NCBI GenBank assembly: GCA_010093815.1
Contig: ML996592.1
DNA from: Pseudovirgaria hyperparasitica
Lineage: Eukaryota
DNA length: 54,926 nt
Direction: 5' to 3' (one strand)
A model generated the notes under the pieces. That model was not told the DNA's origin, ran no database searches, and saw only the letters and a program-made list of their open reading frames with translations. Positions 1 through 37,656 of this stretch are shown in pieces. Position numbers and translations under genes: made by a program. The stretch's first letter is position 1; every line of letters begins with the position of its first letter.

Positions 1-682
1 GGGCTATAGAAGGAACCGAGTAAATAGATATATAAAGGGCTAACGAAAGCCTAAGTATCTATACTTATCTAAGCCCGAACGGGCGCTATAGGACTTCTAT
101 ACTATATCTATAAGAGAGGCGTTCCTAATACCTCCCTATAGTATAAGGCGTACGGCCGGAGAGGTATAATACGCCACTATCTAGCTATATACCCTAACCT
201 CTATATATAATAGTAATAGCTTATCTACGTCACGAAGACTTTAGATATTATATAATAGCTTAATAAGTATTCTAAGGACGTCTCCTAATAGATACTTATA
301 TATCTACTACTCCTCTAGTACTAGTAGACCTAGAAATATATACTAGAAGAGACCCGGTATACGCCGGTAGTAACCTAATATATACCGGAAGAACCCCGGG
401 AGAACCCCGATTATTAGTTAAGGATAGCCCTTAACTAATAACCTCCGTATCTATACGTGCTATCTAAGGGTAAAATAATAGTAATATAGGCTATAGGCTA
501 ATAGGCGTACCCTATAGCTATATACTTAAGACGAAATAGAGGTTTAATGAGATGTAGTTATAGATATAAGGAAGTTTTTCCCTATAGGGTTTCTTCTTAT
601 ATAGTGGCTTAGACTAGAGAAGGCATAGGCCTATAGAGTACTACTCTACCTAGTTATATAATATTATTATTATTATTATTAT
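1..682 (+). mobile_element. Tad1-like LINE family A, copy A1: 3' end (end of ORF2, 3' UTR, (TAT)n tail); continues off the left edge
   Basis: Near-identical to ~25303-25986 of copy A4; ends in ...CTACCTAGTTATATAAT(ATT)n. Confidence 0.9.
411..441. repeat. 31-bp palindrome copy 1 (LINE A1 ORF2 end)
   Basis: TTATTAGTTAAGGA-TAG-CCCTTAACTAATAA. Confidence 0.95.
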
Positions 683-2926
683 AGATATTATACTCCCCTT
701 AAGTTCTTTATTAAAAACTATAGCTAGAATCTTTATAAAGAATTCTCTTTACTTTAGAATATATCTAATTTTATCTATAGATACTAGAGTAAGTAAACCT
801 AGATAAAGATAGTATATATTTACTTCTAGGTCAGAAAATTCTAACTAATATTACTATATAATAACTAGTTTCTCTTCTTCTATTATAGACGGCTTATATT
901 TATAGTTAGAGTTAGAAATTATAGTACTATTAAGAATATTATAGTATATAGTACTATATCTTATACTATATTTATTATATATCTTTTATTTACCTTTTCT
1001 TAAGATCTTAAGCTTATTTTTCTTCTTAATTATAATATAATATAGTATAGTAATATTAGGTAGTATAGTTAGCCCTTTTAGATTTTATATAACTCTCTTA
1101 TCTTCTCTAGATAGAAGGTTAATCTAATAAAGCTTATATAATACTATTTATAATATCTCTATATTTAAATAATAAACCCTATACTTTAGAAGAGAAGGGT
1201 TCTACTAAGTAGGATTTTTAATATTAGTATTAGTAAGAATTAGTTACTTCTTATAGAGTATATATTAATTAATAGTAAGGTAGTAGAACTTTTTATTAAC
1301 CGTAACCGACTTTCTATTATTATTATAGTATAAGTAGCTATCTTTATAGAGAGAGTCTAACTTTTATAGTAGAATATAGAAGTTATTATCTTCTTTTATT
1401 ATAAAAGGTAATACTTTCTTTAAAGACTATATTTTTAATACTTAAAATAATACTATAAATCTATTTATAATATTCTTCTAGTAAAAGATATTATTAAGTT
1501 TTCTATAGAATATTAATACTATATAAATCTTAAGTTTATACTTATTAGAAAGGTAGATACTATAAGTTAGTATTATAAATCGGAGACCTTTAACTATGAT
1601 TCTAGAAGTAGAATAATTATAGACTAGTTTTCGTTTATTATATCTACTATTAAAGCTTTCTTTTTATTCTATATTAATTCTAATATATACTTTATAGAAT
1701 AGAAAAGTTTCTAATTTTATAGTTCTAATAATACTACTTATTATTTCTTTTATATAAGGGTACTTACTATATACTACTCGAGTTATAATAGAAACTATAT
1801 TATATTTTAGAGTAGTAGACTTCTTAATTCGTAACTTCTTACTCTTTATAGTCTTTTCTTCATTAATTTTACTTACTAAATAACCTTTAATATCTTTATT
1901 TCCTTTTAGCTTTTATTTATAATCTCTTTTAGTAGCTAGTTTTAGTAGAGTTAAGATATTTTTATTATCTAAAGTAACTTTAGCTAATTTATCTTTACTC
2001 TATACTATCTTTTATTTACTATAGATATAAGAGTAAGAAGAAATTAATAGTTATTTAAGATTATAGATAAAACTTATTAAGCTAGAGTCTCTATAAGGTT
2101 AAGGTAGAGAATAGAGAGATAAGTTATATATTAAGTTAAGAATAGATAAGAAGAAGATAAACTAATTAAGGAGAAGGTAAACTATACTTAGTAGTAAGAG
2201 TATCTATAAGCGTAACGTTACTATTACTACCTTTTATTAACGGTAGAGTAAAGTTTTCTCTTTACTAATACTAAGTTTATATTATTAAGAGACTTAATAG
2301 TAGTAAGTATAGTAATAATTATTTATAACTACTAAATAGTATTATCTTTATTATTAGCGTTATATATAGTAATACGTTCCCCTTAATAAATACTAGATAG
2401 TAGTCTATATTATATACTTAATAATCGATTAAGATATTACGTAGTAAGAAAGGCGTTCTCTAATCTAAGTATTAATCTATATAGATATAGTACTATAAGA
2501 ATACTTCTCTACTATTCTTACGGAATTCGTACTACTATATAGTAATAAATAATATTACTACGCCTTTCTTTATAGATTCTATCCTTTATATTATCTTACT
2601 TACTAGTACTACGAATGTTTAGAGAATATAATTATAGAAATAGTTATATATATAGATACGGTTTCGGTATAGTATGTTTTTTTAGATTTATAATATATCT
2701 AATATTAGATATAATACTTTAATAGACGCTTATACTTCTAAAGGATAACTATAAAAGAAGGAATATATATATATTATTAATAATAATTTAGAATTCTATC
2801 TATCTTAGGTCGGAACCTTTCGGTTTCTAATCTAAGCTAAAATTTTAATACTATATAAGAAACGCCTCTTAGTACTTAAGACTATAAATTTCTTTTATCT
2901 AGGTTCTCTCTTATAGCTTCTTATTT

Positions 2927-5900
2927 AAAACTTCTTATACTCTAAGAGACTAAAATTAGTTAATTTAGGGCGATATAGTAATTTATAGATATTAATTAAT
3001 AGAGTATACTAAGTATAATAACTTCTAATATATATATATATATATATATAGTATATAATATATAATAGTACTAATATATAGAGATACTATATATATATAC
3101 TTAAAAACTCTTTAGAGTAGTAAGTATAGACTACTACTAATAAACGCTAATATACTAACCCCCTTTATTAGTTAAGGGTAGCCCTTAACTAATAATTATA
3201 GCGGCCTTAGATACTAATATACCCTAGCTTCCACTAGGGATATCCCTACTACTAGTATAATAGAAATAGCTATATAGTAGTATATTCTAGAATAACTAAA
3301 CTACTATCTAGAAAATAAAGAATAACTAAGAGTATAAAATACTATAGATAACTAAGATAGAGGGAACTCCGCTAGGGGATACTCTTATAGATAAGATAGA
3401 ATACTAGATAGTATATATAGAAAGAGAGATTAAGAAGAGAGAGACTACCCTTCTTAATATCTTCCGGAGTCTAGTTTAGAATATCTAAGAACTTAATATA
3501 GAAGTAAAACGAGTACTAGAGTTAAACCTAGAGTCTAGACTAGACTAGATTAAGACTAGTCTATTAAAGATCCAGATAGGCCTTACCTAGAATAAACGCT
3601 CTAGTATATAGATATAGATTACTATACTAATAGATAGTATAACTAAGATAGTCTAGATACTAAGAATATCTAAGGAAGGAGCGTATAGTATATAAGTCGC
3701 TATCTAGAATAAGAAAGTACTTATATAAGTCTAGTAGACGTCCCTAAAGAATATTATTAATAAAATTAATAAATAGAAAGAAATATAGTTAAATATAGTT
3801 ATAGCTAAACTTACTCTAGAACGTATAGTACTAATAACTACTACTAATATAGTCTAGTAGACTATCTCCTATAACCTAAATATAATATATAATATCTTCT
3901 CTAGTATATCTATCTATATAAATATATATCTAATATAGATATATACTATCTCTATCTAGAGCTAAGTTATTAGAGATAATAATATTAAGTAAATAGAGAG
4001 ATCTAACGACTAGAAATACCCTAGAATTAAGATTATAAAGGTATAGTAGAAAAATATATAGAAAATTAAGATAAAATTAAAAAAATACTCTACTATAATA
4101 GTAGAGCTTAGAGACTCTACTCTTATCTATAGAATTATATAAGAAGACTTCTTAGCTAAAGGGGAACTACTTATAGTAGAACTATAGAACTAGATATAGA
4201 TAATAATCTAATACTTTAACTATTAAGAATATAGATATACTAGATAGAGATACTCTTAAAAGGCTATATACGGCTAGTATTTTTAAAGCTATAGTACCTA
4301 GGAATACCTCTACGGGACCTAGAGCGATAGTATATAGAATAGAGAAACTACTAAGTACTCTAACTATAATAGAAAATACCTATTCTAGTTAGTAATATAT
4401 ATAAAATATAAATAAGTTACTAAGTATATTAATACTATAAAGGTAAGAGAAGTAAGGTAGATATACTAGGCTATAAGATCTCTACTACCTACTCTAACCT
4501 TATCTATAATTATATCTACTAATCTATAAGAGGGCGAGAATAATATAGAATAGTATACTATATAGAGGAAGATAGGTTAACCCTAGAGTATTCTTAAGGT
4601 AGCTATAGTACGGGGATAGTCATGCCTTAATACTACTAGTATATAGGTCTAAGTATTCTCTAGTACCTAATAAGAAACTAAGATATACTTATTATTATAT
4701 AGATAAATATATAATATAAATAAGAAAACTAGACTATACTTCTTAACGAGATAGATACTATAATAATAGCTATCTAGAAGCTATATAAATACTACTAAAC
4801 TAATAAACTAATAATATACCTAGGGTACTATACTATCTACCCTCTAAGCCTAGATAGAAGAGTTCTATTCTATATATATAAATTAATTCTACTCTCTAAG
4901 TAGTTCTATATAAAAAAAGATAATCTCTAAATAATACTATATCTCTAGATAAATATAGAATCTTTCTATATCTATAATATCTATAACTAGAGAGAATTAC
5001 TTATACTAGATACTATACTAGAAGATATTATAGTACTAGAATAATATATTCTTCTAGATAACTTTAATCTCTACTATAGATAGTAAAGAGATCTAATAGT
5101 TATAAGAGAAGAACTTAGAGTAAGAGAACTATATATAAGATACTATAACCTTCTATACCTTCTTATATTATTTAGATAAATTATATAGAGGAAATATAAA
5201 TAGAATAAGAAGAGATCTATACTTAACCTTACTCTTATTATAGAATATATAAGCTATAGAGTATAATACTACTACCTAAGTAAGATATAGATAGACTCTA
5301 ACTATAAGTATATAGAGACTATAATAGATATATCTATATCTAATAAATAATAGAGAAGATAGCTCTAGAAAGATACTAACTAGAAGAAATATAGGGAGGA
5401 CCTAGAACTAGTAATTCTAGACCCCTCTATAGTTAATATATCTAATAGCCTAGCTATAGATAGAGCTATATAAGTCCTTCTTTAAGTCTTCTAAGACTTA
5501 AGAGATAAATATATACTATACTAAATATATAAGCCTCTAGATATAAGGGGTATACCTTAAATATATAAAAGTAGATAGAAAGTCTAGAGACTATATATAC
5601 GTGTATACTATATCTAGATAGCTAAGGTATAGAAGAAATAGAAAGAGATAATCTAATCTTATAATAGAACCCTCTATAATAAATAATATAAATACTAGTA
5701 TATAATTACTAATAAATATACATAATAAGCTATAGAGCTATAGTATATAGTAAAGTAGACTAAGGGTATAGATATACTAATACTACTACTACTAATACCT
5801 CCTCTAATATACTAGAGGAGAATATATACTATAAGCCCTAAAAAGATAGAGATCCTCTAAAAGATTATATTTTCCCCTCTAGAGCTAGTAGATCTATTAG

Positions 5901-6046
5901 ATATTAATAATACTATATATCTAGATATAGTTAATATCCCTATAGAGATTATAGAAGAGAATATACTTAATACTATTAAAGTACTTCTAAATAATAAAGT
6001 ATCTAGACTAGATAGAATACTAAATAGATGCCTTAAATATACTATA
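2927..6046 (+). mobile_element. LINE family A, copy A2 (heavily RIPed subfamily), 5' part: 5' UTR, ORF1, APE endonuclease, start of RT; interrupted by copy A3
   Basis: 5' end AAAACTTCTTATACTCTAAGAGACTAAAATTAGTTAATTTAGGG matches the 5' ends of A3 and A5; colinear with A4; relics of IQE, DFNLHH and KAPGPDG motifs. Confidence 0.85.
3165..3195. repeat. 31-bp palindrome copy 2 (LINE A2, just upstream of ORF1)
   Basis: TTATTAGTTAAGGG-TAG-CCCTTAACTAATAA. Confidence 0.95.
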
Positions 6047-6284
6047 ATAATAATAATAATAATATTATATAACTAGGTAGAGTAGTACTCTATAGGCCTA
6101 TGCCTCCTCTAGTCTAAGCCACTATATAAGAAGAAACCCCATAGGGAAAAAGTTCCTTATATCTATAACTACATCTCGTTAAACCTCTATTTCGTCTTAA
6201 GTATATAGCTATAGGGTACGCCTATTAGCCTATAGCCTATATTACCGTTATTTCGCCCTTAGGTAGTACGTATAGGTGTAGAGG

Positions 6285-6315
6285 TTATTAGTTAAGGGCT
6301 ACCCTTAACTAATAA
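6285..6315. repeat. 31-bp palindrome copy 3 (LINE A3 ORF2 end)
   Basis: TTATTAGTTAAGGG-CTA-CCCTTAACTAATAA. Confidence 0.95.
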
Positions 6316-7253
6316 TCGGGGTTCTCCCGGGGTTCTTCCGGTATATATCGGGTTACTACTAGCGTATACCGGGTCTCTTCCGGTATATATTTCTAGGTCT
6401 ACTAGTACTAGAGGAGTAGTAGATATATAAGTATCTATTAGGAGATATCCTTAGGGTACTTATTAAGCTATTATATGATATCTAAAGTCTTCGTAACGTA
6501 GATAAGCTATTACTATTATATATAGAGGTTAGGGTATATAGCTAGATAGTAGCGTATTATACCTCTCCGGCCGTACGCCTTATACTATAGGGAGGTATTA
6601 GGAACGCCTCTCTTATAGATATAGTATAGAAGTCCTATAGCGCCCGTTCGGGCTTAGATAAGTATAGATACTTAGGCTTTTATTAGCCCTTTATATATCT
6701 ATTTACTTAGTTCCTTCTATAGCCCTCGAATCTACTCTAGGTACCTATTCTACTAGAAGGTCTAGTAGATATAGAGTGCCTCTTTCTACTTATCTTAAGT
6801 CTATAACTATATATTTTTTATAAGTTCTTAAAGGCTCTACTAGTCTAGGAGAGCGTCTAGGTTATCTCGGACTTCTTATACTACTTAGCTAGAGTCGGCT
6901 TCTATTAATCACCTATACCGTATTTAATTCCGGCCTATATATAGGAGTACACGGTAATATATACTAATTTATATATATAGCGCGGCGAAAGTATATTCTA
7001 CGTTTCCTATACGTTCCTATACTTATTATTTAGTAAAGTATATTACCCTCTATATCTAGTAGAAGTTATATATACTTATAACGTCTATCTTACGTCGTAG
7101 TAGTACCATATTGGTAGCTTTATATACGCCTAATATAAGACGGAGTATACGGTTCTATATAGATTCGAGCTTTATTCGCCTAGTCTATATAAGGGCCGTA
7201 TACTAGTACTCGTGTCCGTACGTAAAGGCGGGTCGTACTATAGATATATATAG

Positions 7254-8138
7254 NNNNNNNNNNNNNNNNNNNNNNNNNNNNNNNNNNNNNNNNNNNNNNN
7301 NNNNNNNNNNNNNNNNNNNNNNNNNNNNNNNNNNNNNNNNNNNNNNNNNNNNNNNNNNNNNNNNNNNNNNNNNNNNNNNNNNNNNNNNNNNNNNNNNNNN
7401 NNNNNNNNNNNNNNNNNNNNNNNNNNNNNNNNNNNNNNNNNNNNNNNNNNNNNNNNNNNNNNNNNNNNNNNNNNNNNNNNNNNNNNNNNNNNNNNNNNNN
7501 NNNNNNNNNNNNNNNNNNNNNNNNNNNNNNNNNNNNNNNNNNNNNNNNNNNNNNNNNNNNNNNNNNNNNNNNNNNNNNNNNNNNNNNNNNNNNNNNNNNN
7601 NNNNNNNNNNNNNNNNNNNNNNNNNNNNNNNNNNNNNNNNNNNNNNNNNNNNNNNNNNNNNNNNNNNNNNNNNNNNNNNNNNNNNNNNNNNNNNNNNNNN
7701 NNNNNNNNNNNNNNNNNNNNNNNNNNNNNNNNNNNNNNNNNNNNNNNNNNNNNNNNNNNNNNNNNNNNNNNNNNNNNNNNNNNNNNNNNNNNNNNNNNNN
7801 NNNNNNNNNNNNNNNNNNNNNNNNNNNNNNNNNNNNNNNNNNNNNNNNNNNNNNNNNNNNNNNNNNNNNNNNNNNNNNNNNNNNNNNNNNNNNNNNNNNN
7901 NNNNNNNNNNNNNNNNNNNNNNNNNNNNNNNNNNNNNNNNNNNNNNNNNNNNNNNNNNNNNNNNNNNNNNNNNNNNNNNNNNNNNNNNNNNNNNNNNNNN
8001 NNNNNNNNNNNNNNNNNNNNNNNNNNNNNNNNNNNNNNNNNNNNNNNNNNNNNNNNNNNNNNNNNNNNNNNNNNNNNNNNNNNNNNNNNNNNNNNNNNNN
8101 NNNNNNNNNNNNNNNNNNNNNNNNNNNNNNNNNNNNNN
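7254..8138. other. Assembly gap (885 N) inside LINE A3
   Basis: N run; the equivalent segment in A4 is ~1.1 kb of RT. Confidence 1.
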
Positions 8139-10820
8139 TCTAATAGGTCTACTAGTTCCGGGAGAGGGAATATAGCCTTCTATAGGGCCTTAGTTTTCTT
8201 AAGGCTCGTAGAGTATATTCTCCCCTAATATATTAGGGGAGGCATAAGTAGCGGGGGTGTCGGAGTATCTATGCCCTTAGCCCATTTCGCTATACGCCAT
8301 AGCCCTATTACGTATTATATCTATTAACTAGTAATTATACGCTACTATTTACGCCTTTCGTTATAGAGGACTTTATCGCGTTATTATATTACTTTCTTCT
8401 ATTCTTCCTACGACTCGGGTGTTCTTATATAGTATACGCGTATGTATAGTCTTTAGGCGTCTTATCTACTTTCCTATACTTAAGGAATCCCCTTTGCTTC
8501 CGGGGGCTAGTATATTTAGTATAGTACGTGTTTATTTCTCGCATTCTAGTATATTTATAGGAGTATCTATACGGCCTAGTCTATGGCTAGGTCGTTAGAT
8601 ATATTAACTATAGAGGGATCTAGGATCGCCGATTCCAGGTCCTTTAGGTACTTTTCCTAGTTAGTATCCTTCTATATCTATTATCCCTATTATTTATTCG
8701 GGGTATATATATTTATTACGGTTTCTATGTATTTATAGTTGGAATCCGTCTATACCTAGCTTAGGCGGTAGTATTAGATCTAGTAACTAATATACTCCGT
8801 GGCGAAGGTAAGGTTAAGCATAGACCCGTCTTTATTCTATTTATATTTTTTCTATATAACTTATTCTATAGGTATAAGTAGGTATAGGAAGTCGTGGTAG
8901 CGGGTACGTAGTTCCCTTACTCTAAGTTCTTCCCTTACCACGGCTAGGCCTCCCTACTATTAGTAGTAGAGATTAAAGTCTTCTAGGAGGATATGTTACC
9001 CTAGTTCCGTAGTACTCTCGAGTATCTCGTCTAGTGTAAGTACACGTTATTAGTTATATATGTTATATATATATAGGGGGCCTATATCTATTTATAGGTA
9101 TAGTATTATCCTAAGGTTATCGCGCTTAGTATACGACTATAATAAGAGTAGTATTAACCTATAAATGTGGAAGAGGACTCGTCTTTCTAGTCCTAGAGGG
9201 TGTATAGTATAGTATCTAGGGTATATGGTTAGTTTACTCGTCTAGTAGTGTTTATAGGGTTCCTAGATAGCGAGTATTATAGCCCCGGTCTCTTCGAGGA
9301 GCGTCGCCTAGTTCTCTCTTTTATATTATATATTTATCTATATAATTTAGAGTATATTCTAGTCCCTTATTAGGTACTAGGGAGTATATATATCTATATA
9401 CTTATTCCTTAGAGGCGCGACTATCCTTACGCGGTAGCGGCTTTAACTATACCTTTTAGTCGTCCTATTATCTTTAGAATAGTCTACTATCCCGCCTAAC
9501 TACCTTCCGGAGGGGAGGTTAGGGGTATTATAAAGAAAGGGCCCGTAGTAGGTGTTATATTCTATAACTATCTCGCGCCTCTCGCTTTTATCGTACGAAT
9601 GTATTCTATGATCTATTTGCGTTTTATGTATGTTAACGACCACAACGGGTGTTTCCCGTTATAGTTTAAATACTATACTATATCCCTGTTTCTTAGTCCG
9701 TCTCCTTACGGTTTATAAGGGCACTTCTAGGTAGTGTGGTTTCTACGGTACTATCCGCACTTAGTCTTCTATAAGCACCTTTATATAGTATATCTATACC
9801 CTTAATAGTTAAAGTACTATATTATTATCTATGCCCTATTCTATGGCTCGGCTATAAGGAGCTCTCCTTCTACTAGGAATCCCTCCTATATAATACGTTA
9901 TATAAGGGCGGGGTCTTAGAGCTCTATAATTATAGTAGAGTGTTTTTTCGCCGTCGTCTTAATCGTCTATAGGTTCTTCTACTACGCTTTTACGATCTTA
10001 ATCCCTAGGTATTTTCGCGTGTTAGATTATTCTATACGCGTAATATCCTCCGCTCTAATAGCCTATCCCCGCACGGGTACTATATATACTATAATTAGGT
10101 ATATAGCTACTCTAATAGACGCGCCGGGGAAGATACTATCTATCGCGTTCGGATCTCGTAAGATGTTTTACTACGTAGTATTTATTATAGTAGTAAGTAC
10201 TATCCTATCTAGTATAACTTTAGTAGCCACGACGCTTAACTATATTCCTTTCTATTTATTAATCTTATTTATAATTTCCTTTGAAGATACCTATTAGACC
10301 TGCGCCAGCGTGTCCTTATTCTAGATTATAATATATATACTATATACTCTATCTATAGTCCTAGTAGTCCTTAGTGCGGTAGCTCCGGGTGTTACTATAA
10401 TCTAAGCCCACGTATTAGGGCGCTTACCTTAGGATAGCTCTTCCTAGATTCTCCGTAGGCTGGCTTCTATTTAGTCGAGCCTACTACTAGGTTCCTCTTA
10501 TAGCGACTTCCTTTCTTCCTCTATAATTTCTCTTAGATTCCGGATAAGGTCCCGGAATATATAAAGGAGGGTCTTCTTTCCCTTCTCGGCGTCCCTCTCT
10601 ACACGTATTACCTAGTATTTAATTTTATCTAGGAGGGTCTCCCCTCTCGGGGTCCCCTCGGTCTAGGTTATCTATAGCGCTTCGCACCCTTAGTTAGTTC
10701 CTATATTTTAGATAGGTGTCTAGCTATCTATATTAATATCGCTATATAGCCGTTTCTACCGTACTAGTAGGGGTATATCCGGCGTCTACCGGGGTATTAT
10801 GATACCTAAGGCCGCCATAG

Positions 10821-10851
10821 TTATTAGTTAAGGGTAGCCCTTAACTAATAA
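10821..10851. repeat. 31-bp palindrome copy 4 (LINE A3, just upstream of the ORF1 ATG; spacer inverted relative to the element)
   Basis: Plus strand reads GGG-TAG-CCC although the element is on the minus strand. Confidence 0.95.
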
Positions 10852-11087
10852 AAGGGGGTCGGCGTGTCGGCGTTTATTAGATATAGTCTATACTTATATT
10901 ATCGAAGAGTCTTTAAGCGTATATATATAGTATCTCTATACGTTAGTATCGTCGCGTATTATATACTATACGTATACACGTATGTCGGAGGTTATTATAC
11001 TCGGTATACTCTATCGTTTAATGTATGTAAATCGCTGTTTTACCCCGAATTAACTAGTTTAGTCCGTTGGGGTGTGAGAAGTTTTTT

Positions 11088-16200: not shown

Positions 16201-16508
16201 TCTAGTTTCTATAGTTCTTTAGTAATAATATAGAGGTATATATAATCTATAATAGTAACTATAAGCTCTATTATTATCTCCCTATAGATTATTATCTAAG
16301 TCTTTACTTAGATTATTATTATTCCTTAAAACTCTTATTATAGACTAAGAGTATCTATAGAAGTTATTTCTAGATAGATAGTCTCTAGAATTTTCCTCTT
16401 TATTTCTTTTCTAAGGCCTTTCTTAAGAGAGCGTGACCCGGCTATTTCTATCTAGTTCTATTAGTAGATTTACCCTCTCTTAATTATTAAGTACTACTAA
16501 TACTAACA
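13284..16508 (-). mobile_element. Ty3/Gypsy relic 2 (gag, protease, RT), RIPed and truncated within RT
   Basis: De-RIPed minus-strand reading: gag-like IGFFDP...VYYR...CL.G.A..WY (~15950-16160); protease DTG..SLIDR.WL...V.GIG...NL..KLL.G.D (~14450-14730); RT PVFV.W, V.DIR.L, DA.S.FYQW, HRGQE, VY.DD.VVFSKTF.EH (~13300-13720); possible LTR start TGTTAG at 16508. Boundaries approximate. Confidence 0.75.
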
Positions 16509-18099: not shown

Positions 18100-20721
18100 T
18101 TTATTACTAATATTTATTATAAGTTTTTATATACTATTATACGTCTCTATATATCTCTATCTACTAATACTTATCTTTAATTCTTCTAAGGGTCCCTTTA
18201 CTATCTCTATAATCTATCTTATTATAAGTAGTAGTAATTATATATATTCTAGTATTTAGGTTCTTAACTATCTATATATATTAGTAATATCTATCTTCTC
18301 TCTACTAGAGTATCTAGTCTTATATAAGAAATTTAAGATAGTTAGTTATAAAGACCTTATATATATAATTAGTTAGGTTAGTTAGTCTCTTAAGTATAGT
18401 AAGATACTTTATAATTCTCTACTACTTATTACTATATTTATTAGTTAGAGATAACTTAATAGTAGTATAGTTAAGTACTTCTATTAAGTAATCTCTTCTA
18501 TAGATAGACTTAATTAATAATATTTCTAGTATATCTATATATAGAGCTATATCTATAAACTTATCTAGGTTAAAAGTAGAGATATCTAGTAGTTCTTCTC
18601 CCTTATATATTTAGAAGATACTATTAGTAACTATATTATTTTTACTAGATATATATCTAACTATAAAATTCTATAGTTAAATCTATATAAGCTATCTTAT
18701 AATAAGTACCTCTAGTAAGTTAGTTATAGTATAGTTAATTTAAGTAATAAGAGTATTTTTATCTATTACTATAATAAAGTATATACTATAGAGATATTAG
18801 TAGAACTTCTATAGTATATAGAGAAGGGCTTAGTATTCTAGCTTTATAGTATTATATTTTCTCTTAGCTTTTAACTATATTCTTCTATTATACTATAATA
18901 GTTAATATTTCTAGTTCTTATTCTTCTATATTAGCGTAGCTCCCTAGCTAATATTACTTAAGTCTATTACTAGAATAATATCTTCTATATCTATTCTATA
19001 CTATAGTATTATTAGTATTAGGGTAGTTATTAGAGCTTTCTTTAGCGTGTCTATTAAGGTCTATTTCTTAGATATCTATTATTATACTAACTTACTCTTT
19101 AATAGTATAAATAGTAGTAATACTATAACTATATATTCTAGAATCTATATATAGAAATAAATATATATACTAAGAAAGACTTATATATTTATTATATTTT
19201 TATATAGCTTCTATTCTCTAATAGTTATAATTTTCTTATTACTTAGCCGTCTCCCTTTAATATTATATATATATTCTATAATATTAGTAGCTTTAATATA
19301 TTATTAAGTCTTCTTACTACTTAGAGTATATCTAGTCTGCTTAATATCTATAAATTCTAGGTAGTATCTCTTTAGAGCTATACTTTATAGTAAGGCCTTT
19401 AATATCTAAGTTATCTAGAAATAGTAGAGCTCTCTCTAGAATATATTTCTATATAATAGTTAATATAATTCTAATAAACTAGGCTACTAAATTAGTAGCC
19501 CTCTAAGATAATATTATACTATATAATAACTCTAGAGATATTATAAAGTCTATAAGATCTTAATAATACTCTACTAGTAGAATCTAGTTATATTCTAAGA
19601 AGAAGTTAGTAAATATTAAGATAGCTATCTCTATAAAGTACTCTAAGAATTCTTTATATAATAGTAGTATAGCTATATCTTAAATTATAATATAATTAAT
19701 TTTAGTTACTAAGTTAATTAGTCTATAATCTTACTTCTTATTAGCTTTCTTCTTCTTCTCTATAAGAAAGTATATATTCTAATATAGACTACTATAGAGT
19801 TTAAGTCTTCTACTATTAAGATATTCTTTTAGAATTATAAGTACTTTTCTATAGAGAGCCCTTAGAATATTAAAGTTCTTAGTTTATTATACTTTATACT
19901 CTATTATTTAAATCTTCTATAGAGGTACTACTTTCTTATTAAACTTACTAAGATAGAAGAACTTCTATACTAGCGCCTTCTCTTAATATAGTAAGATTAT
20001 ATATAGAAGGTTAAGCTTTATAGAATATAATTCTATTTTAATCTTTAGCTAGCTTATATATAGAGGTATAAGATATATTTCTAGAGAGAGAGATATCTTT
20101 TAAGATTTAATTAGTCTTCTAAAGATATTAAGTTCTAAGTATATAGCTAGAAGAAGTATCTATTATATAATTATTTACTCTTACTAGTCTAGATACTCTA
20201 GTAGGTTTTAGGGAACCTTCTAATAGATCTTAGAGTTATTAATAGGGTATATTTTAGCTTACTTTCTTTTATATATAATAGCTATACTAAATATTTATAA
20301 TACCCCTAGCAGATATTATTATTAGAGACTAGTAGAGTCTACTATAAGCTACTCTATTATTATACTCTATTTATATATAAAGATAGTATATCTAGCTACT
20401 ATAACTAGAGTAGCTAAGTTATCTTTTCTTAATAACTAAATAATATTTCTAGACTAGATTTCTTTAGAAGGTATTCCTATATAACTTATCTCTATATCTA
20501 TATAAAAATATATCTTATTCCCTTTATTAGTAGACTTACTATCTCTTATTTAGTATAGATTATTAGTTAAGAATAGCTCTTAACTAATAATCTAACTTAA
20601 CTCTAGCTCTTAGAGATCTACTCTACTATATAGTTAGTCTCTAGCTATAGAATTAGTTTTCTTTTCTAAGACTAATATATATTTATCTAGGCTAGTTTTA
20701 AAGATTATATACTTTTATCTA
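18100..20721 (-). mobile_element. Ty3/Gypsy relic 1: pol (RT, RNase H, integrase HHCC), interrupted by LINE A4
   Basis: De-RIPed motifs: YKRK.AK..P; VAQF.R...PFLDD..KGP (~19410); RNase H IIL..DSS..GWGATL.Q, KLEC.ALL, FTVRH.PGK.N.VAD; integrase LHD..GH...KYWW..MY.DV..Y.KTC..CQ (~18110-18230). Left boundary approximate. Confidence 0.8.
20557..20593. repeat. Palindrome copy 6, inside Gypsy pol between protease and RT (arms extended to 37 bp)
   Basis: AGA-TTATTAGTTAAGAA-TAG-CTCTTAACTAATAA-TCT; lies outside the TSD-defined LINE A4. Confidence 0.9.
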
Positions 20722-20937
20722 AAAACGTCTCTTAAGACTATTTATATTATTCTATAGAGATATACATCTCAATCGATAGAGTACACCGAGTACACTAACT
20801 ACTACTATACGCACGTACGTGTAGCGTCGAAACCAAGACGTTATCGCCGTACAAAGATATATACATACCCTCTTAAAATCCTCACGGAGATAGAGGCACG
20901 GACTACGCTACTAGAACGCTAATATACCGACCCCCTT

Positions 20938-20968
20938 TTATTAGTTAAGGGCAGCCCTTAACTAATAA
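20938..20968. repeat. 31-bp palindrome copy 7 (LINE A4, upstream of ORF1); retains the un-RIPed CAG spacer
   Basis: TTATTAGTTAAGGG-CAG-CCCTTAACTAATAA. Confidence 0.95.
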
Positions 20969-23900
20969 ATATAGCGGCCTTAGGCACCGATATACCCCGG
21001 TATATACTGGATATACCCCTACCGGTACGATAGAAAAGGCCATATAGTAATATTACTAAGGGTAGCCATATACCTATCTAAAACGTAGAACATACCTAAA
21101 GGCGCACGCCGCTATAGATAGACGGAATAAAGGGGACCCCGAGAGGGGAAACCCTCCTAGATTATATTAACTACTAGGTAGCACGTGTAGAGAAGGAAGC
21201 CGGAGAGGGCTAGAAGACCCTTCTATATATATTCTAGAACCTTATCTAGAATCTAAAGGGAATTACGGAGAAGGAGAAGAAGATATAACTAGGAGGACCG
21301 GAGGGTAGGCTCGACTAAATAGAGGCTAGCCTACGTAGAATCTAGGAGGAACTTACTTAAGGTAAGCGCCCTAGTATATAGGTATAAATAGTAGTAATAC
21401 CGGAAGCTATACCACGGGCCCCCCGGACCGGTGACGCGGCGTATAGTATACGCGTTATAATCTAGGATAAGGACACCCTAGTATAGATCTAGCGAGCATC
21501 CCTAAAGGATATAGTAAGTAAGATTAATAAATAAAAGGGAATATAGTTAAATATTATCGCCGCTAAACTCACGCTAGAAGAAGTAGTACTTACTATAATA
21601 ACGAATATCGCGTAGTAGACTATCTCGCGCGATCCGAACGCGATTAGTAGTATCTTCCTAGGCGCCTCTATTAGGGCGGCTATATACCCGATATAGATAT
21701 ACTTAGTACCTATACGGGGATAGGCTATCGGAGCGGAGGATATTACGTGTATAGAATAATCTAACACGCGAAAATACCTAGAGATTAAGATCGTGAAAGC
21801 GTGGTAGAAGAACCTATAGACGATTAAGACGACGGCGAAAAAACACTCTACTATAATTATAGAGCTCCGAGACCCCGCCCTTATATAACGTATTATATAG
21901 GAGGGATTCCTAGTAGAAGGAGAGCTCCTTATAGCCGAGCCATAGAATAGGGCATAGATAATAATATAGTACTTTAACTATTAAGGGTATAGATATACTA
22001 TATAAAGGTGCTTATAGAAGACTAAGTGCGGATAGTACCGTAGAAACCACACTACCTAGAAGTGCCCTTATAAACCGTAAGGAGACGGACTAAGAAACAG
22101 GGATATAGTATAGTATTTAAACTATAACGGGAAACACCCGTTGTGGTCGTTAACATACATAAAACGCAAATAGATCATAGAATACATTCGTACGATAAAA
22201 GCGAGAGGCGCGAGATAGTTATAGAATATAACACCTACTACGGGCCCTTTCTTTATAATACCCCTAACCTCCCCTCCGGAAGGTAGTTAGGCGGGATAGT
22301 AGACTATTCTAAAGATAATAGGACGACTAAAAGGTATAGTTAAAGCCGCTACCGCGTAAGGATAGTCGCGCCTCTAAGGAATAAGTATATAGATATATAT
22401 ACTCCCTAGTACCTAATAAGGGACTAGAATATACTCTAAATTATATAGATAAATATATAATATAAAAGAGAGAACTAGGCGACGCTCCTCGAAGAGACCG
22501 GGGCTATAATACTCGCTATCTAGGAACCCTATAAACACTACTAGACGAGTAAACTAACCATATACCCTAGATACTATACTATACACCCTCTAGGACTAGA
22601 AAGACGAGTCCTCTTCCACATTTATAGGTTAATACTACTCTTATTATAGTCGTATACTAAGCGCGATAACCTTAGGATAATACTATACCTATAAATAGAT
22701 ATAGGCCCCCTATATATATATAACATATATAACTAATAACGTGTACTTACACTAGACGAGATACTCGAGAGTACTACGGAACTAGGGTAACATATCCTCC
22801 TAGAAGACTTTAATCTCTACTACTAATAGTAGGGAGGCCTAGCCGTGGTAAGGGAAGAACTTAGAGTAAGGGAACTACGTACCCGCTACCACGACTTCCT
22901 ATACCTACTTATACCTATAGAATAAGTTATATAGAAAAAATATAAATAGAATAAAGACGGGTCTATGCTTAACCTTACCTTCGCCACGGAGTATATTAGT
23001 TACTAGATCTAATACTACCGCCTAAGCTAGGTATAGACGGATTCCAACTATAAATACATAGAAACCGTAATAAATATATATACCCCGAATAAATAATAGG
23101 GATAATAGATATAGAAGGATACTAACTAGGAAAAGTACCTAAAGGACCTGGAATCGGCGATCCTAGATCCCTCTATAGTTAATATATCTAACGACCTAGC
23201 CATAGACTAGGCCGTATAGATACTCCTATAAATATACTAGAATGCGAGAAATAAACACGTACTATACTAAATATACTAGCCCCCGGAAGCAAAGGGGATT
23301 CCTTAAGTATAGGAAAGTAGATAAGACGCCTAAAGACTATACATACGCGTATACTATATAAGAACACCCGAGTCGTAGGAAGAATAGAAGAAAGTAATAT
23401 AATAACGCGATAAAGTCCTCTATAACGAAAGGCGTAAATAGTAGCGTATAATTACTAGTTAATAGATATAATACGTAATAGGGCTATGGCGTATAGCGAA
23501 ATGGGCTAAGGGCATAGATACTCCGACACCCCCGCTACTTATGCCTCCCCTAATATATTAGGGGAGAATATACTCTACGAGCCTTAAGAAAACTAAGGCC
23601 CTATAGAAGGCTATATTCCCTCTCCCGGAACTAGTAGACCTATTAGATATTCACGGTACCGAATATCTATATATAGTAGATATCCCCGAAGAAGTTACGG
23701 AGGAGGATATACTTAATATTATTAAGATACTTCTAAATAATAAAGTACCTAGACCAGATAGAATTCTAAATCGATGCCTAAAAAGTACTATAAAAGCGAC
23801 CCTACCGCTTATTACTTATATATTCTAAGTATACGTTATATAGGGGTACCACCCCTAGAGCTTCTAAGTTATCTATACTATTATACTCCCGAAACTAGAA

Positions 23901-25711
23901 AAGAGCTCTAACTCTCTAAAGGGATAGAGACTAATCGCCCTTCTCTTCTACCTAGGTAAGATACTAGAGGCTATAATAGCGAAGAAGATAAGTACCGCGG
24001 TATAGGAATATAATCTTCTCCCTCCGAACTAGAAGGCAAAGATAGATAGCTCCCTAATAATAGCTATCTAATATATTATTAAAGTCGTCTAGGCCGTATA
24101 GAAGTAGGGACGGGTAGTATCGCTCCTCTCCCTCGATATAGCCGGAGCGTTTAATAAGGTAAACTATATAAGACTTATTTATAACCTCCGGATAAGACGA
24201 ATACTAGAATAGATTATACGCTTTATATAGTTATTCCTTATAGGAAGAATAACTTAGATATATATCTCTAGATACTAGAGCGAATATAAAGAGACGGTAT
24301 ACGGCATCCTATAAGGGAGCACTATCTCTCCGATTCTATTCCTCTTCTTTACGGTAGACCTTCTTTAAGGAATAAAGTATATAGAGGTAGTCGGATACGC
24401 TAATAATATATACCTCCTAGCTATTAATAATAATACCAACCGAATATATAGAAGACTAGAATAGGACCACGAGAGGTGCCTCTAGTAGGTAAAACGCTAC
24501 GGAGCAAAGTTCGCCCCGGAGAAATACTAGCTTATATACTTTATTAATCGTTAAGGGAAATAGATAACTAGGGAAGGCGAATAACGCCCCCGAATCGACG
24601 TATTTAACGAACTCCTAGTATAAAGCATACGCGCGCTCGGAGTTATACTAGATAGCAAGCTTAAATGGGGACTATAAGTAGTATACGTCGTCTCTAGGGC
24701 CCTCTAGGTAGAAGCCGCCATACGACGGATTATAGCCTCTATATAGGGAACCGCCCGGGATAAGGCACGCTAGCTATATATATCTATAGTACGACCCGCC
24801 TTTACGTACGGACACGAGTACTAGTATACGGCCCTTATATAGACTAGGCGAATGAAGCTCGAATCCATATAGAACCGTATACTCCATCTTATATTAGGCG
24901 TATATAAAGCTACTAACACGGTGCTACTACGACGCGAGATAGACGTTATAAGTATATATAACTTCTACTAGATATAGAGGGTGGTATACTTTACTAAATA
25001 ATAAGTATAGGAACGTATAGGAAACGTAGAATACACTTTCGCCGCGCTATATACACGAATTAGTATATATTACCGCGTACTCCTATATATAGGCCGGAAT
25101 CGAATATAGTATAGGTGCTTAATAGAAGCCGACTCTAGCTAAGTAGTATAAGAAATCCGAGATAACCCGGACGCTCTCCTAGACCGGTAGAGCCTTTAAG
25201 AACTTATAAAAAATATACGGTTATGGACTTAAGATAAGTAGAAAGAGGCACTCCGTACCTACTAGACCTCCTAGTAGGATAGGTACCTAGAGTAGATTCG
25301 AGGGCCATAGAAGGAACCGAGTAAATAGATATATAAAGGGCTAATAAAAGCCTAAGTATCTATACTTATCTAAGCCCGAACGGGCGCTATAGGACTTCTA
25401 TACTACCTCTATAAGAGAGGCGTCCCTAACGTGTCTCTATAGTATAAGGCGTACGGCTAGAGAGGTATAATACGCCACTATCTAGCTACATACTCTAACC
25501 TCTATATATAACGGTAATAGCTTATCCACGTTATAAAGACTTTAGATATCGCATGATAGCTTAATAAGTACCCTAAGGACGTCTCCTAATGGATACTTAT
25601 ATATCTACTACTCCTCTAGTACTAGTAGACCTAGAAATATATACCGGAAGAGACCCGGTATACGCTAGTAGTAACCCGATATATACCGGAAGAACCCCGG
25701 GAGAACCCCGA

Positions 25712-25742
25712 TTATTAGTTAAGGGTAGCCCTTAACTAATAA
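25712..25742. repeat. 31-bp palindrome copy 8 (LINE A4 ORF2 end)
   Basis: TTATTAGTTAAGGG-TAG-CCCTTAACTAATAA. Confidence 0.95.
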
Positions 25743-26000
25743 CCTCTGTATCTATACGTGCTACCTAAGGGTAAAATAACGGTAATATAGGCTATAGGCT
25801 AATGGGCGTACTCTATAGCTATATACTTAAGACGAAATAGAGGTTTAACGAGATATAGTTATAGATATAAGGAAGTTTTTCCCTATGGGGTTTCTTCTTA
25901 TATAGTAGCTTAGACTAGAGGAGGCATAGGCCTATAGAGTACTACTCTACCTAGTTATATAATATTATTATTATTATTATTATTATTATACTTTTATCTA

Positions 26001-26575
26001 TAAATAGAATAAACTATTAATAATACTTATCTAGAAGCTAATCTTTATACTATAAAAGAGACTTATCTAATATATAGCTACCTAGAAATAAGATTATAAT
26101 TAAGTTTAGTATATATAAATATTAAAGTAGCTATAATAATCTATTTAATATAGATTAGATATTATTATACTATATCTATAAATAGTATACTATATTAAGT
26201 AGTACTAACTAGACTTAAGTCCTTTATATATAGTAGTATTAAAGATATAGAAAGTCTAAGATATATTATAGTATCTAGATAAATATTATTTACTTATATA
26301 CTACTATTAAGTAGTACTATACTTATTATTTACTAAGGGCTAACTTCTATAGAATACTATAGATACTTAGTTACTAGTCTTATAATTCTCTTCTTAAGCT
26401 AATTAATATCTTACTATATAATAGCTAATCTAGTAATATAAATTAGTACTAATATATTAAGTTTATTTATCTTAGAAGCTATAGTATAATTATTCTACCT
26501 CTTCTTCTTAGCCGTTTCTTCTTAAGTCTCTTAGACTTCTTAAGCTATAAAGTTAGAGACTTCTTTCTTAAATAC
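26001..26575 (-). mobile_element. Ty3/Gypsy relic 1, upstream part (aspartic protease)
   Basis: Continues across the A4 TSD; de-RIPed ALLD.G..VN.I (~26290-26320) and FV...LDHD.I.GQP (~26075-26120). Confidence 0.7.
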
Positions 26576-26819
26576 TATATAATAATAATAATATTATTAT
26601 ATAGCTATATAGAGTAGTTTACTCTATAGGTATATACTTTCTCTAGTCTAAGCTATTATATAAGAAGAAACCTTATATAGAAAAACTCCCTTCTCTCTAT
26701 AACTATATCTTATTAAGTCTTTATATCTTTCTAAGTATATAGCTATTAAATATACCTATAGACCTATAACCTATATTATTATTATTTTACCCTTAGATAG
26801 CACGTATAGAGTATAGAGA

Positions 26820-26851
26820 TTATTAGTTAAGGGTTACTCTTTAATTAATAG
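26820..26851. repeat. Palindrome copy 9 (LINE A5 ORF2 end; degenerate)
   Basis: TTATTAGTTAAGGG-TTA-CTCTTTAATTAATAG. Confidence 0.8.
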
Positions 26852-29800
26852 TTAGGGTTTTCCTAAGGTTCTTCTAGTATATACTAGAGTCTATCTAGTA
26901 TATATCTAGTTTCTTTTAGTATATATATCTAGGTCTATTAGTATTAAGGGAGTAGAAGATATATAAGTATCTACTAGATTATCTTCTTAGGGTATTTATT
27001 AAGCTAATATATAATATTAGAGGTCCGTATTATATAGATAAGTATTTATCTTTATATATAGAGATCCGGGTATATTATAAGATAGTATTATATTATATCT
27101 CTCTAGCTATATACTTTATACTATAGAGATATATCTAGGATATCTCTCTAATATAGATAGTATAGAAGTTTTATAGCTTCTATTTAGGCTTAGAGAAGAA
27201 TAGATATCTAGGCTTTTATAAGCCCTTTATATATCTATTTACTTAGTTTCTTCTATAGTTCTTAAATCTACTCTAGATATTTATTCTATTAGAATATCTA
27301 ATAGACTTAGAGAGTCTTTCTCTATTTATTCTAGATCTATAACTATATAGTCTATATAAGCTTCTAAGGATTCTACTAGTCTAGAGAGATATCTAGATTA
27401 TCTCTAATTTCTTATATAATCTAATTTAAGTCTATCTCTATTAGATACTTATACTATAGTTAAGTATAGTCTATACATAGTAGTACTTAATAGTAGATAC
27501 TAACTCTTATATATAGTATAGTAAAAGTATATTCTATATATTCTATATATTTCTATACTTATTATTTAATAAAGTATATTACTCTCTATATCTAGTAGAA
27601 GTTCTATATACTTATTACGTTTATCTCTCTTTATAATAGTACTATATTAGTAGCTTTATATATACTAGATATAAGATAGAGTATATAATTCTATATAGAC
27701 TTAAGCTTTATTTATCTAGCTTATATAAGAGCTATATACTAGTACTTATATCTATATATAAAGACGGATTATACTATAGAGATATATAGCTAGCGCGCCT
27801 TATTCTAGGTAGTTCTCTATATAGAGGCTATAATCTAGTATATAGTAACTTCTACCTTAAGGGCCCTAGATATAATATATATAATCTATAGTCTCTATTT
27901 AAGTTTATTATTAATTATAATACTAAGTATATATATACTCTATATTAGTAGTTTAGTAAAAGTATCTATTCTAGAGTATTACTCTCCCTTCTTAGTAGTC
28001 TATCTTCTATAGTAGTTAGTAAAGTATATAAGTTAGTATTTCTTAGAGACTAACTTTACTCTATAGTACGTTATCTACTAGAGATACCTCTTATAGTCTT
28101 ATTTAAGGTATTTATATATTAGATTAGTATTATTATTAATAGCTAGAAGATATATATTATTAGTATATTCTACTATCTCTATATATTATATTCTCTATAG
28201 AAGGTCTATAGTAAAGAAGAGGAAGAGAATTAGAGAGATAGTATTTTCTTATAGAATACTATATATTATTATCTTATATTTACTTTAATATCTAGAGATA
28301 TATATTTAGATAATTCTTTTAGTAAGAAAGGACTTTATAAACTTTATAATCTATTTAGATATATATCTCTTCTATAGATTATAGATAAGTCTTATATAGT
28401 TTATCTTATTAAATATACTAGCTATATTAAGAGAGAGTAGTATTACTATATATCTCTACTTCTATATAGTCTAGGTAACTTTAAGAATATATTAGATAGT
28501 AGTAATTAGAGAGCTTCTAGTCTTTATCTTCTAGTTTACTAGAAGAAGATTATATTTCTATATTATAATACTTATCTTCTTTATAATTATAGTCTTAAGT
28601 ATCTTACTAAGATAGAAAAGAAAGATAATTAGTCTCTATTCTTTTATAGAGTTAGAGTTCTTCTCTAGTTTTAGAAGTATAATAGTATAGATAGTTTAAA
28701 AGCTTTAGAGATAGTATCTATTCTTAGTATATATCTAGAAGATAAGACTAATAAGTAGTAGGGTTATCTATATAGTATATTTAAGATATTTATTTAGTAT
28801 TCTATCTAGTCTAGGCGCTTTATTATTTAGAAGTACTCTAATAGTATTAAGTATATTCTCTTCTATAATCTCTATAGAGATATTAACTATATCTAGATAT
28901 ATAGTATTATTTATATTAGATAGATCTACTAGCTCTAGAGAGAGAAATATAACTTTATAGAGAATCTCTATCTTTTCTAGACTTATAGTATATATTCTCT
29001 TCTAGTATATTAGGGGAGGTATTAGTAGTAGTAGCGTCGGTATATTTATACTCTTAGTCTACTTTACTATATATTATAGCTCTATAGCTTATTATATATA
29101 TCTATTAGTAATTATATATTAGTATTTATATTATTTATTATAGAGAGTTCTATTCTAAAATTAGATTATCTTCTTCTATTCCTTCTATATCTTAGCTATC
29201 TAGATATAATATATATATATAGTCTCTAGACTTTCTATCGTCTATATTATTTATTAGGTATAGATATATCTATTATAGTCTCTATATACTTATAGTTAGA
29301 GTCTATCTATATCTTACTTAGATAGTAGTATTATACTCTATAGCTTATATAATCTATAGTAAGAGTAAGGTTAAGTATAGATCTTTCTTTATTCTATTTA
29401 TATTTTCTCTATATAATTTATCTAATTAGTATAAGAAGGTATAGAAGGTTATAGTATCTTATATATAGTTCTCTTACTCTACGTTCTTCTCTTATAACTA
29501 TTAGATCTCTTTACTATCTATAGTAGAGATTAAAGTTATTTAGAAGGATATATTATTCTAGTACTATAATATCTTCTAGTATAGTATCTAGTATAAGTAA
29601 TTCTCTCTAGTTATAGATATTATAGATATAGAGAGATTCTATATTTATCTAGAGGTATAATATTATTTAGAGGTTATCTTATTTTATATAGAACTACTCT
29701 AAGAGCGGGATTAATTTATATATATAGAATAGAACTCTTCTATCTAGGTCTAGAGGGTAGATAGTATAGTATTCTAGATATATTATTAGTTTATTAGTTT

Positions 29801-31393
29801 AGTAGTATTTATATAGCTTCTAGATAGCTATTATTATAGTATCTATCTCTTCTAAGAGTATTACCTAGTTTTCTTATTTATATTATATATTTATCTATAT
29901 AATAATAAATATATTATAGCTCCTTATTAGATACTAGAAAATACTAAAGTCTATATACTAGTAGTAATAAGGCGTGATTATCTCTATATAGTAGCTACTT
30001 TAAGAATATCTCTAGATTAGCCTATCTTCCTCTATATAGTATACTATTATATATTATCTTAGCTTTCTTATAGATTTATAGATAAGATTAGAGTAGATAG
30101 TAGAGGTCTTATTTATAGTCTAGTATATCTATATTACTTCTCTTACCTTTATAGTATTAATATATTTAGTAACTTATTTATATTTTATATATATTACTAA
30201 CTATAATAGATAGTTTCTATTATAGTTAGAGTACTTAGAAGTATCTTTATTATATATATAGTTACTCTATACTTTATATAGGTATTTCTAGATACTATAG
30301 TTCTATTAGTACTATCTATAAATAGTCTTCTAAGAGTATCTCTATCTAGTATATCTATATCTCTAATAGTTAAAGTATTAGATTATTATCTATACTCTAT
30401 TCTATAGTTCTACTATAAGTAGCTCTTTCTTAGCTAAGAAGTCTTCTTATAAAATCTAATAGATAAGAATAGAGTCTTAGAGCTCTACTATTATAGTAGA
30501 GTACTTTTTTAATTTTACTTTAATTCTCTATATATTCTTCTACTATACTTTTATAATCTTAATTCTAGGGTACTTCTAGTTATTAGATTACTCTATTTCC
30601 TTAATAATATTAATACTAATAATATATCTCTAGATAGAGACTATATATAACTATATTAGATATATATTAGTATAGATAGATATACTAAAAAAGATATTAT
30701 TAGTTATATTTAGATTATAAAAGATAGTCTATTAGACTATATTAGTAATAGTAATTAATACTATATCTTCTAGAGTAAGTTTAGCTATATTTATATATAA
30801 CTATATTTCTTTCTATTTATTAATCTTATTAATTATATTCCTTAGAGATATCTTTTAGATCTATATAAGAACTTTATTATTCTAGATAATAATCTATATA
30901 CTATATATTTCTTCTATAGATATTCTTAGTATTTAAGCTATTCTAGTTATACTATCTAATAGTATTATAACTTATATCTAAGTAGTTAGATATTTCTTTT
31001 AGATAAGATCTTTCTAGATTCTTAGTAGACTAGTCTTAATCTAGTCTAGTCTAGACTTTAGACTTACTTCTAATATCTATTTTACTTCTATAGTAAGCTC
31101 TTTAATATTCTAGACTAGACTTTAGAAGATACTAAGAAGAGTAGTCTCTTCTTTCTTAATCTCTCTCTCTATATATACTATCTAATAGTTAATCTTATCT
31201 AGAAGAGTATTACTAGCTAGGGTTCTCTCTTTCTCTTTTATCTATAATATTTTATACTCTTAGTTATTTATTACTTTTTAAATAGAGGTTTAATTATTCT
31301 AGATTATTCTACTATATAGCTCTTTCTACTATATTAGTATTAGAGATATATCTAGTAGAAGCTAGGGTATATTAGTATATAAGACCTCTATAG

Positions 31394-31424
31394 TTATTAG
31401 TTAAGGGCTATTCTTAACTAATAA
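31394..31424. repeat. 31-bp palindrome copy 10 (LINE A5, upstream of ORF1)
   Basis: TTATTAGTTAAGGG-CTA-TTCTTAACTAATAA. Confidence 0.9.
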
Positions 31425-35593: not shown

Positions 35594-35661
35594 AGCTGAG
35601 GAAACCGTACCTTGACGTTGTTTCTACATATTGCTTTATTGTCTACTGACTACTGTTTCAC

Positions 35662-37473: not shown

Positions 37474-37656
37474 AGCCGGAAATTGGAAGTGCCAGCCAAA
37501 GGAAGACTAATTAGTTTTATCGACTTTTTAGACTCCCTCGAGTACTAAGTAAGCCCTCGCTATACGTAATAAGTAATACTAGGAGCATAAGAAAGATTAA
37601 GAAAGAAAGACTTAAGAGAAATATAAATAGCTTTATCTCTATAGATCTAGTTTAAA

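Follow-up and report, generated by a model that had tools for sequence, protein, structure and literature searches.

In a 54.9-kb stretch of DNA from Pseudovirgaria hyperparasitica (54,926 nt, hereafter the window) we investigated a short palindrome that occurs repeatedly in a long interspersed nuclear element (LINE) whose copies have been degraded by repeat-induced point mutation (RIP). Our results show that the motif marks one LINE family and does not represent a new element spanning several classes of transposable elements. With a confidence slightly short of even, we suggest that the palindrome is an integral cis-acting element of this single high-copy LINE, and probably that its two copies work as paired hairpins by which the 5' and the 3' end of the element recognize each other. 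An earlier note on this DNA had proposed a cis-acting system common to unrelated transposable elements; a role in cis is plausible, while the extension across classes was not borne out by our data.

The left 34 kb of the window is AT-rich (GC 0.21-0.39) and has a RIP-type index, (CpA+TpG)/(ApC+GpT), of 0.01-0.22 as compared to 1.18 in the GC-rich right part. The earlier note had listed ten copies of the motif there. By searching for TTATTAGTTAAGGG-YAG-CCCTTAACTAATAA we recovered nine of them with at most 3 mismatches, and none was found in 100 dinucleotide shuffles; the tenth, at 26820, is present as a decayed copy with either 7 mismatches or an indel. Relaxing the threshold to at most 8 mismatches revealed no extra site in the whole window and none in 20 shuffles. 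All departures of the nine good sites from the consensus are G>A or C>T changes, i.e. of the RIP type. Eight sites are located in four full-length LINE copies, one in a copy that is cut by the window start and one, at 20560, outside the LINE (Table 1, where the LINE copies are numbered c1 to c6). The motif had been described as having arms of 14 bp and a spacer of 3 nt. It is indeed a palindrome, but its true symmetry is 15-1-15, because the copy at 20938, which belongs to the least mutated LINE copy (c5), has the un-RIPed centre GGGCAGCCC. The 5' palindrome of c3 (10851-10821, the minus strand being the sense strand) has a central T and thus reads CTA, where the other LINE copies have TAG or CAG; this centre reflects either a single A/T transversion or a flip of the palindrome.

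Next, we analyzed where the palindromes are placed within the LINE. The copies were delimited by self-comparison together with a profile search, and the 5' end of the element was set by three copies with unrelated outside flanks. All four full-length elements carry two palindromes (3165 with 13009, 10821 with 6285, 20938 with 25712 and 31394 with 26820), as the earlier note had stated for every copy with two visible ends, whereas in c1 only the 3' site (411) is visible. The paired palindromes have the same orientation, and they are found in both subfamilies of the LINE. The 5' palindrome lies 234-238 nt inside the 5' end of the element and is followed, after 2 nt, by the ATG of open reading frame (ORF) 1, which is kept in c3 (10818-10816) and has been changed by RIP to ATA elsewhere. 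The 3' palindrome is separated from the end of the tail by 245-251 nt, and the reverse transcriptase (RT) frame of c5 runs into a TAG at 25716-25718 within it. Both positions, next to the ORF1 start and at the ORF2 terminus, had been correctly recognized from the letters alone. The final conserved motif of ORF2 is situated 26 codons upstream of this point, and because the homologues have tails of 8-25 residues there, the data fit an ORF2 that ends at the 3' palindrome or immediately ahead of it. Taken as a whole, the layout consists of a leader of ~235 nt, the first palindrome, 2 nt, ORF1, ORF2 with its stop in the second palindrome, a trailer of ~250 nt and a (TTA)n tail. In its present form the palindrome contains stops in all three frames of both strands, with TAA TAA standing 2 nt ahead of the preserved ATG.

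Outside the 31 nt of the palindrome, the flanks of the 5' site and of the 3' site are unrelated to each other, in agreement with the earlier description. We considered an extended inverted repeat around the palindromes and rejected it: in the profile alignment, extension beyond 31 nt gains only ~2 bits. The palindromes are therefore internal borders of the coding block and not terminal repeats, and the conflict that had been seen with the rule that LINEs have no terminal repeats disappears, since the sites are internal, ~235 nt from the 5' end and ~250 nt before the tail. Leader, palindromes and trailer transpose as one unit, because the nested copy c3 carries both leader and trailer inside its target duplication.

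The identity of the carrier was examined at several levels. A profile match to RVT_1 was found in the c5 frame (E 1.3e-11), and the ORF2 translation, with stops written as X, matched 23558 library proteins at E <=0.001, the best of them at 4e-122 over residues 37-1079. The alignments to the library protein P0001 and to others begin at query residues 8-37 and thus, by homology, in the N-terminal endonuclease. The ORF2 relatives carry the endonuclease families PF03372 and PF14529, while the endonuclease of the RIPed window copy itself gave no Pfam score. The frame following the 5' palindrome resembles the ORF1 of a related locus (L007) over the knuckle region with E 2e-12; no match was found between the window ORF1 and the ORF1 of locus L020. 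The nested copy c3 is flanked by an 11-bp target duplication (AAATATACTAT), all five 3' ends carry the (TTA)n tail and self-comparison revealed no long terminal repeats (LTRs) on the LINE. On the grounds of RVT_1, the homology of ORF2 and ORF1, the target duplication and the (TTA)n tail, the carrier of the palindromes is a LINE of the apurinic/apyrimidinic endonuclease (APE) type with ORF1 upstream of ORF2, and from its fungal-type relatives and general knowledge we take it to be Tad1-like. When we searched for an ORF2 of this family without mutations, we obtained at best relatives at <=35% identity. Two subfamilies can be distinguished in the window: one comprises c1, c3 and c5 (90-95% alike), the other c2/c4 and c6 (86-89% alike), and the identity between the two groups is 67-77%, with transversions at ~8-9%. 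We observed that 20923 contig pieces of run X1 fall on the window; the LINE family is therefore hugely amplified. Copy c3 also holds a run of 885 N (7254-8138), which is either an assembly gap or masked sequence and gives rise to spurious six-frame 'ORFs'.

In order to approach the state before RIP we used two runs, X3 and X4, which come from a different sample bearing an identical species label. Their contigs contain a version of the LINE with 566 differences from c5 over 21622-25578, almost all of them T>C and A>G, and this version is a little-mutated copy. On 20927-20967 (41 nt) the X3/X4 contig has 3 other letters and ends within the 5' palindrome, which indicates that the palindrome is present in the little-mutated copy with at most 3 differences per 41 nt. 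The earlier note had reconstructed a pre-RIP form with six C/G sites; at the 5' site this form needs 6 changes where the contig has 3, and neither it nor the peptide readings derived from it gained support. Even c5 has lost ~83% of its CpA/TpG (index 0.20 versus 1.18 in the GC-rich half), and in view of this loss we rejected dating the TA dinucleotides of the arms from the window alone. The X3/X4 LINE contig, together with one contig each of X1 and X2, skips 276 nt (25170-25447), in place of which there are 4 other letters. Since these 276 nt code for a conserved C-terminal region of ORF2, the version without them is an internal-deletion variant.

The only copy outside the LINE deserves separate consideration, since the idea of a system shared across element classes was built on it. 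At 20560 the profile match to the LINE is limited to 20558-20594, and comparison of the flanks to the LINE with a RIP-tolerant Smith-Waterman alignment gave low-complexity noise only. The copy thus stands in non-LINE surroundings, as had been noted, and LINE-derived flanks, which the earlier note had counted among the findings that would refute its reading, were not found. Its assignment to a Gypsy pol could not be confirmed: the sole recognizable LTR-retrotransposon domain is an RT_RNaseH match 1.6 kb away from the site, neither 18900-20758 nor the blocks beyond c5 and c6 yielded any domain, an LTR pair could not be identified for the non-LINE block (also by self-comparison), a homologue search for the block around 20560 came back empty and the fetched related loci contained no LTR-element pol that could have been used as a probe. 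Along 37 nt the palindrome agrees with the version at the 3' site of the LINE, down to the flanking GA (left) and YCT (right), and its symmetry extends locally to TAGA..TCTA, so that a 35-bp version with TA on both sides can be delimited. Because of this 37-nt match, descent from the LINE is the simpler explanation, and a single copy of this kind does not argue for an independent system. A 161-nt contig of the probable source sample lies on 20423-20583 with 12 other letters; because this piece spans the border, at least one paralogue of the 20560 repeat has the palindrome junction as well. Judging from these alignments, we favour reading the copy as a patch of 37 nt that derives from the LINE and is carried by another repeat family, probably without a function of its own.

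To gain insight into a possible function we folded the palindrome as RNA. It forms a 14-bp hairpin of -15.8 kcal/mol (z -4.9), and 0 of 200 shuffles were as good. The 5' and 3' copies are mutually complementary because they are identical palindromes, and their duplex reaches -43.6 kcal/mol compared to -34.9 kcal/mol for the two local hairpins together, a comparison that excludes the cost of closing the 4.7-kb loop between them. In the least mutated 5' context (c3, 10780-10880, minus strand) an outer helix, GCCGACC/GGCGGC, encloses the hairpin and the AUG of ORF1; the fold of this region has -32.5 kcal/mol (z -3.9). Each copy of the palindrome on the transcript would form a 14-bp hairpin, and the two could serve as matched handles that connect the ORF1 start with the ORF2 end, via proteins of the element itself or by direct pairing of 5' and 3' RNA. 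Such a connection might lead to the selection of full-length RNA for target-primed reverse transcription. A more specific proposal, which we regard as possible but doubtful, is a device for communication between the ends that switches between two hairpins and one 31-bp duplex, or is bridged by a dimeric protein of the element, with the effect that only full-length RNA would be copied and the two ends would be directed to the two target strands. Only for a few animal elements is it understood how LINEs choose their own full-length RNA and what the 5' end contributes to second-strand steps. A high-copy fungal LINE with identical hairpins at its borders would be an easy test system for end-to-end recognition.

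Comparison to known systems gives partial parallels for such an arrangement. Tad1 of Neurospora and its relatives have two ORFs, APE and RT domains, a zinc knuckle in ORF1, target duplications and 5' truncation, and they are heavily affected by RIP in the AT-rich blocks of ascomycetes. The window LINE shares these features and differs by the palindromes of its coding block, which 14 related loci do not have. We know of no Tad1-like LINE that has been described with identical palindromes bracketing the coding region, and full-text literature searches yielded no such description for a LINE. In flaviviruses, complementary cyclization sequences at the 5' and 3' ends compete with local hairpins and join the ends of a long RNA for the polymerase; these are viral RNA replicons with distinct, non-palindromic 5' and 3' partners, and any likeness to the LINE would be one of analogy. 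In stringent LINEs, namely UnaL2 of eel and ZfL2 of zebrafish, the ORF2 protein recognizes the cognate 3' stem-loop (PMC4176376). Like these, the window element is an APE-type LINE with a short perfect stem-loop toward its 3' end, before a tail of short tandem repeats, and by analogy this stem-loop might plausibly act as a protein handle for template choice. Unlike them, it has an identical second copy at the ORF1 start, the ORF2 stop overlaps with its 3' copy at a distance of ~250 nt from the tail and its relatives are fungal and Tad1-like, whereas UnaL2 and ZfL2 belong to the L2 clade. In R2, one subunit of the protein is positioned by the 5' RNA for cleavage of the second strand (PMC2346776). 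R2 also has RNA elements near both transcript ends, which direct its protein, one for each strand of the target DNA, and this agrees with the logic that we suggest for the matched pair; the two RNAs are dissimilar complex folds, and R2 has a single ORF, a restriction-like endonuclease and site-specific insertion. The elements of the window LINE are, unlike those of R2, identical simple palindromes.

Several observations weigh against paired recognition hairpins, beginning with the omitted cost of the 4.7-kb loop. The 15-1-15 symmetry, with C and G as complementary outer letters of the loop, equally suits a site on double-stranded DNA. The stem-loops of stringent LINEs are usually closer to the tail, and the window 3' hairpin, at ~250 nt, is farther off. 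In the four-copy alignment, the number of non-RIP changes in 16.8% of the 31-column windows does not exceed that of the 5' palindrome; conservation of the palindrome among the dead copies is not above background and is thus uninformative, and all LINE copies in the window are dead. An Rfam search of positions 1-34000 on both strands returned 0 matches at E <=1. Among the 14 related loci in which both ends are available, none has twin palindromes at the borders, and a duplex-energy test of 5'-3' pairing in the relatives gave no signal. Apart from these points, the arms are almost free of RIP targets, and the palindrome itself was not found in any of 80 related LINE loci fetched from metagenomes.

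The relatives nevertheless provide a weak lead for 5'-3' pairing. In 3 of the 14 related loci (L006, L008 and L017) we observed perfect complementarity of 11-13 nt between leader and trailer, while among 384 control pairs 5 reach at least 11 nt and 0 reach at least 13 nt. If the communication device between the ends exists, these complementarities in related fungal LINEs would represent variants of one common principle. In the related locus L013, the 3' partner seen in L006 has been retained in part.

Other explanations of the two palindromes have to be considered. One of them, which we regard as unlikely, is translational punctuation by a cassette that combines stops in three frames with a hairpin: leader or read-through translation would end at the upstream copy, ORF2 would end at the downstream copy and a stop 2 nt before the ORF1 AUG would allow termination-reinitiation. 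Stops in all frames of both strands, the TAA TAA just before the ATG and the end of the RT frame at the TAG within the 3' copy are what such a cassette would look like, and the SART1 LINE reportedly uses stop-start coupling beside an RNA structure. However, RIP may have produced some of the TA dinucleotides, and because the little-mutated contig permits up to 3 differences, not all stops are proven to be original. Moreover, a hairpin of -15.8 kcal/mol is weak for ribosome control, and punctuation leaves the need for two identical palindromes unexplained. We assign a low probability to the foremost candidate of the earlier note, a double-stranded DNA site at both coding borders to which a putative dimeric protein would bind (a transcription factor of the host, for example, or a factor involved in chromatin or silencing). 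That the palindromes coincide exactly with the start of ORF1 and the stop of ORF2 fits a role at the transcript level better, and the sole non-LINE copy in 54.9 kb looks LINE-derived, although the perfect 15-1-15 dyad of the least mutated copy, the orientation-independent symmetry and the occurrence of one copy beyond the LINE are all expected for a binding site. In addition, the RIP-degenerate pattern found 0 matches in metagenome contigs, prokaryote genomes and viral contigs.

The palindromes could also be a functionless by-product of history, i.e. a fold-back or template-switch scar of reverse transcription that was duplicated to the other border (for example via an exchange of the coding block or of an untranslated region) and inherited from a successful master. 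The huge amplification, as seen from the 20923 contig pieces of X1, would spread any feature of a master, conservation is not above background and the relatives do not have the feature. We consider this improbable all the same: it is unlikely that independent scars would yield two identical 31-bp copies with exact placement at the start and the stop border, both copies are kept in two subfamilies that differ by ~8-9% transversions and the 5' copy is also present in the little-mutated version. The idea of the earlier note that a tiny mobile palindrome colonizes transposable elements, here an independent, MITE-like mobile or recombinogenic palindrome that entered the LINE twice and another repeat family once, appears highly improbable. 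It draws on the unrelated flanks at the three kinds of sites and on the TA on both sides of the 35-bp version at 20560, but the flanks (GA/CC, TT/NT and TA-GA/TC-TA) differ, there is no common target-site duplication and TA is absent at the LINE sites. Furthermore, an empty site was seen in neither LINE subfamily, the little-mutated copy likewise has its 5' site occupied, the copy at 20560 has extra flank letters in common with the LINE 3' site and the remaining non-LINE part of the window holds 0 further sites at <=8 mismatches.

Table 1. Positions of LINE copies, palindromes and further features in the window and in related loci (locus names precede the position)
Feature	Position	Strand	Remark
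LINE c1	1..690	+	3' part only, cut by window start; (TTA)n tail
LINE c2	2927..6047	+	5' part; continued by c4 after nested c3
LINE c3	6036..11091	-	full length, nested in c2/c4
LINE c4	11088..13293	+	3' continuation of c2
LINE c5	20734..25993	+	least RIPed; ~50 nt missing at 5' end (starts at model position 50)
ORFs of c5	ORF1 from 20971; ORF2 ~22401 to 25715; RVT_1 ~23907-24575	+	
LINE c6	26571..31666	-	full length, heavily RIPed
3'-site palindrome of c1	411..441	+	GGA variant
5'-site palindrome of c2	3165..3195	+	
3'-site palindrome of c3	6285..6315	-	
5'-site palindrome of c3	10821..10851	-	followed by CT, then ATG 10818-10816
3'-site palindrome of c2/c4	13009..13039	+	GAG variant
Palindrome outside the LINE	20556..20594, core 20560-20590	+	GAA..CTC variant
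5'-site palindrome of c5	20938..20968	+	
3'-site palindrome of c5	25712..25742	+	stop of RT frame, TAG 25716-25718
3'-site palindrome of c6	26820..26850	-	decayed
5'-site palindrome of c6	31394..31424	-	GAA variant
RT_RNaseH, sole recognizable LTR-retrotransposon domain	~18745-18982	-	E 1.8e-9; in non-LINE block 13293-20734
Leader-trailer complementarities	L006:93-105 with 4821-4833; L008:103-115 with 6517-6529; L017:115-125 with 5227-5237		
Palindrome GTCTAGTAAGG-C-CCCTACTAGAC	L039:5885; L044:5894; L052:3836; L065:1866		

In another related LINE family we found a palindrome that occurs once per element, GTCTAGTAAGG-C-CCCTACTAGAC with variants, and is located ~110 nt ahead of the ORF2 match. 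In its inner letters this palindrome is similar to the motif of the window (TAGT-AAGG / CCTT-ACTA). A further related LINE, at locus L024, is flanked by a 19-nt direct repeat (~315 and ~6338), which is most likely a target-site duplication.

Outside the LINE copies, the border between the AT-rich and the GC-rich part of the window (34196-37506) contains a methyltransferase ORF and a gamma-glutamyltranspeptidase gene that is split over two frames. On the plus strand at 39106-40493, two adjacent frames match DUF3435 (1.9e-34 and 2.4e-45) and are either split by an intron or frameshifted; DUF3435 is the family of the 'captain' tyrosine recombinases of Starship elements. A Dicer-like gene with Helicase_C, Dicer_dimer and two Ribonuclease_3 domains is located on the minus strand at 43749-47107, ~10 kb from the RIPed repeat block.

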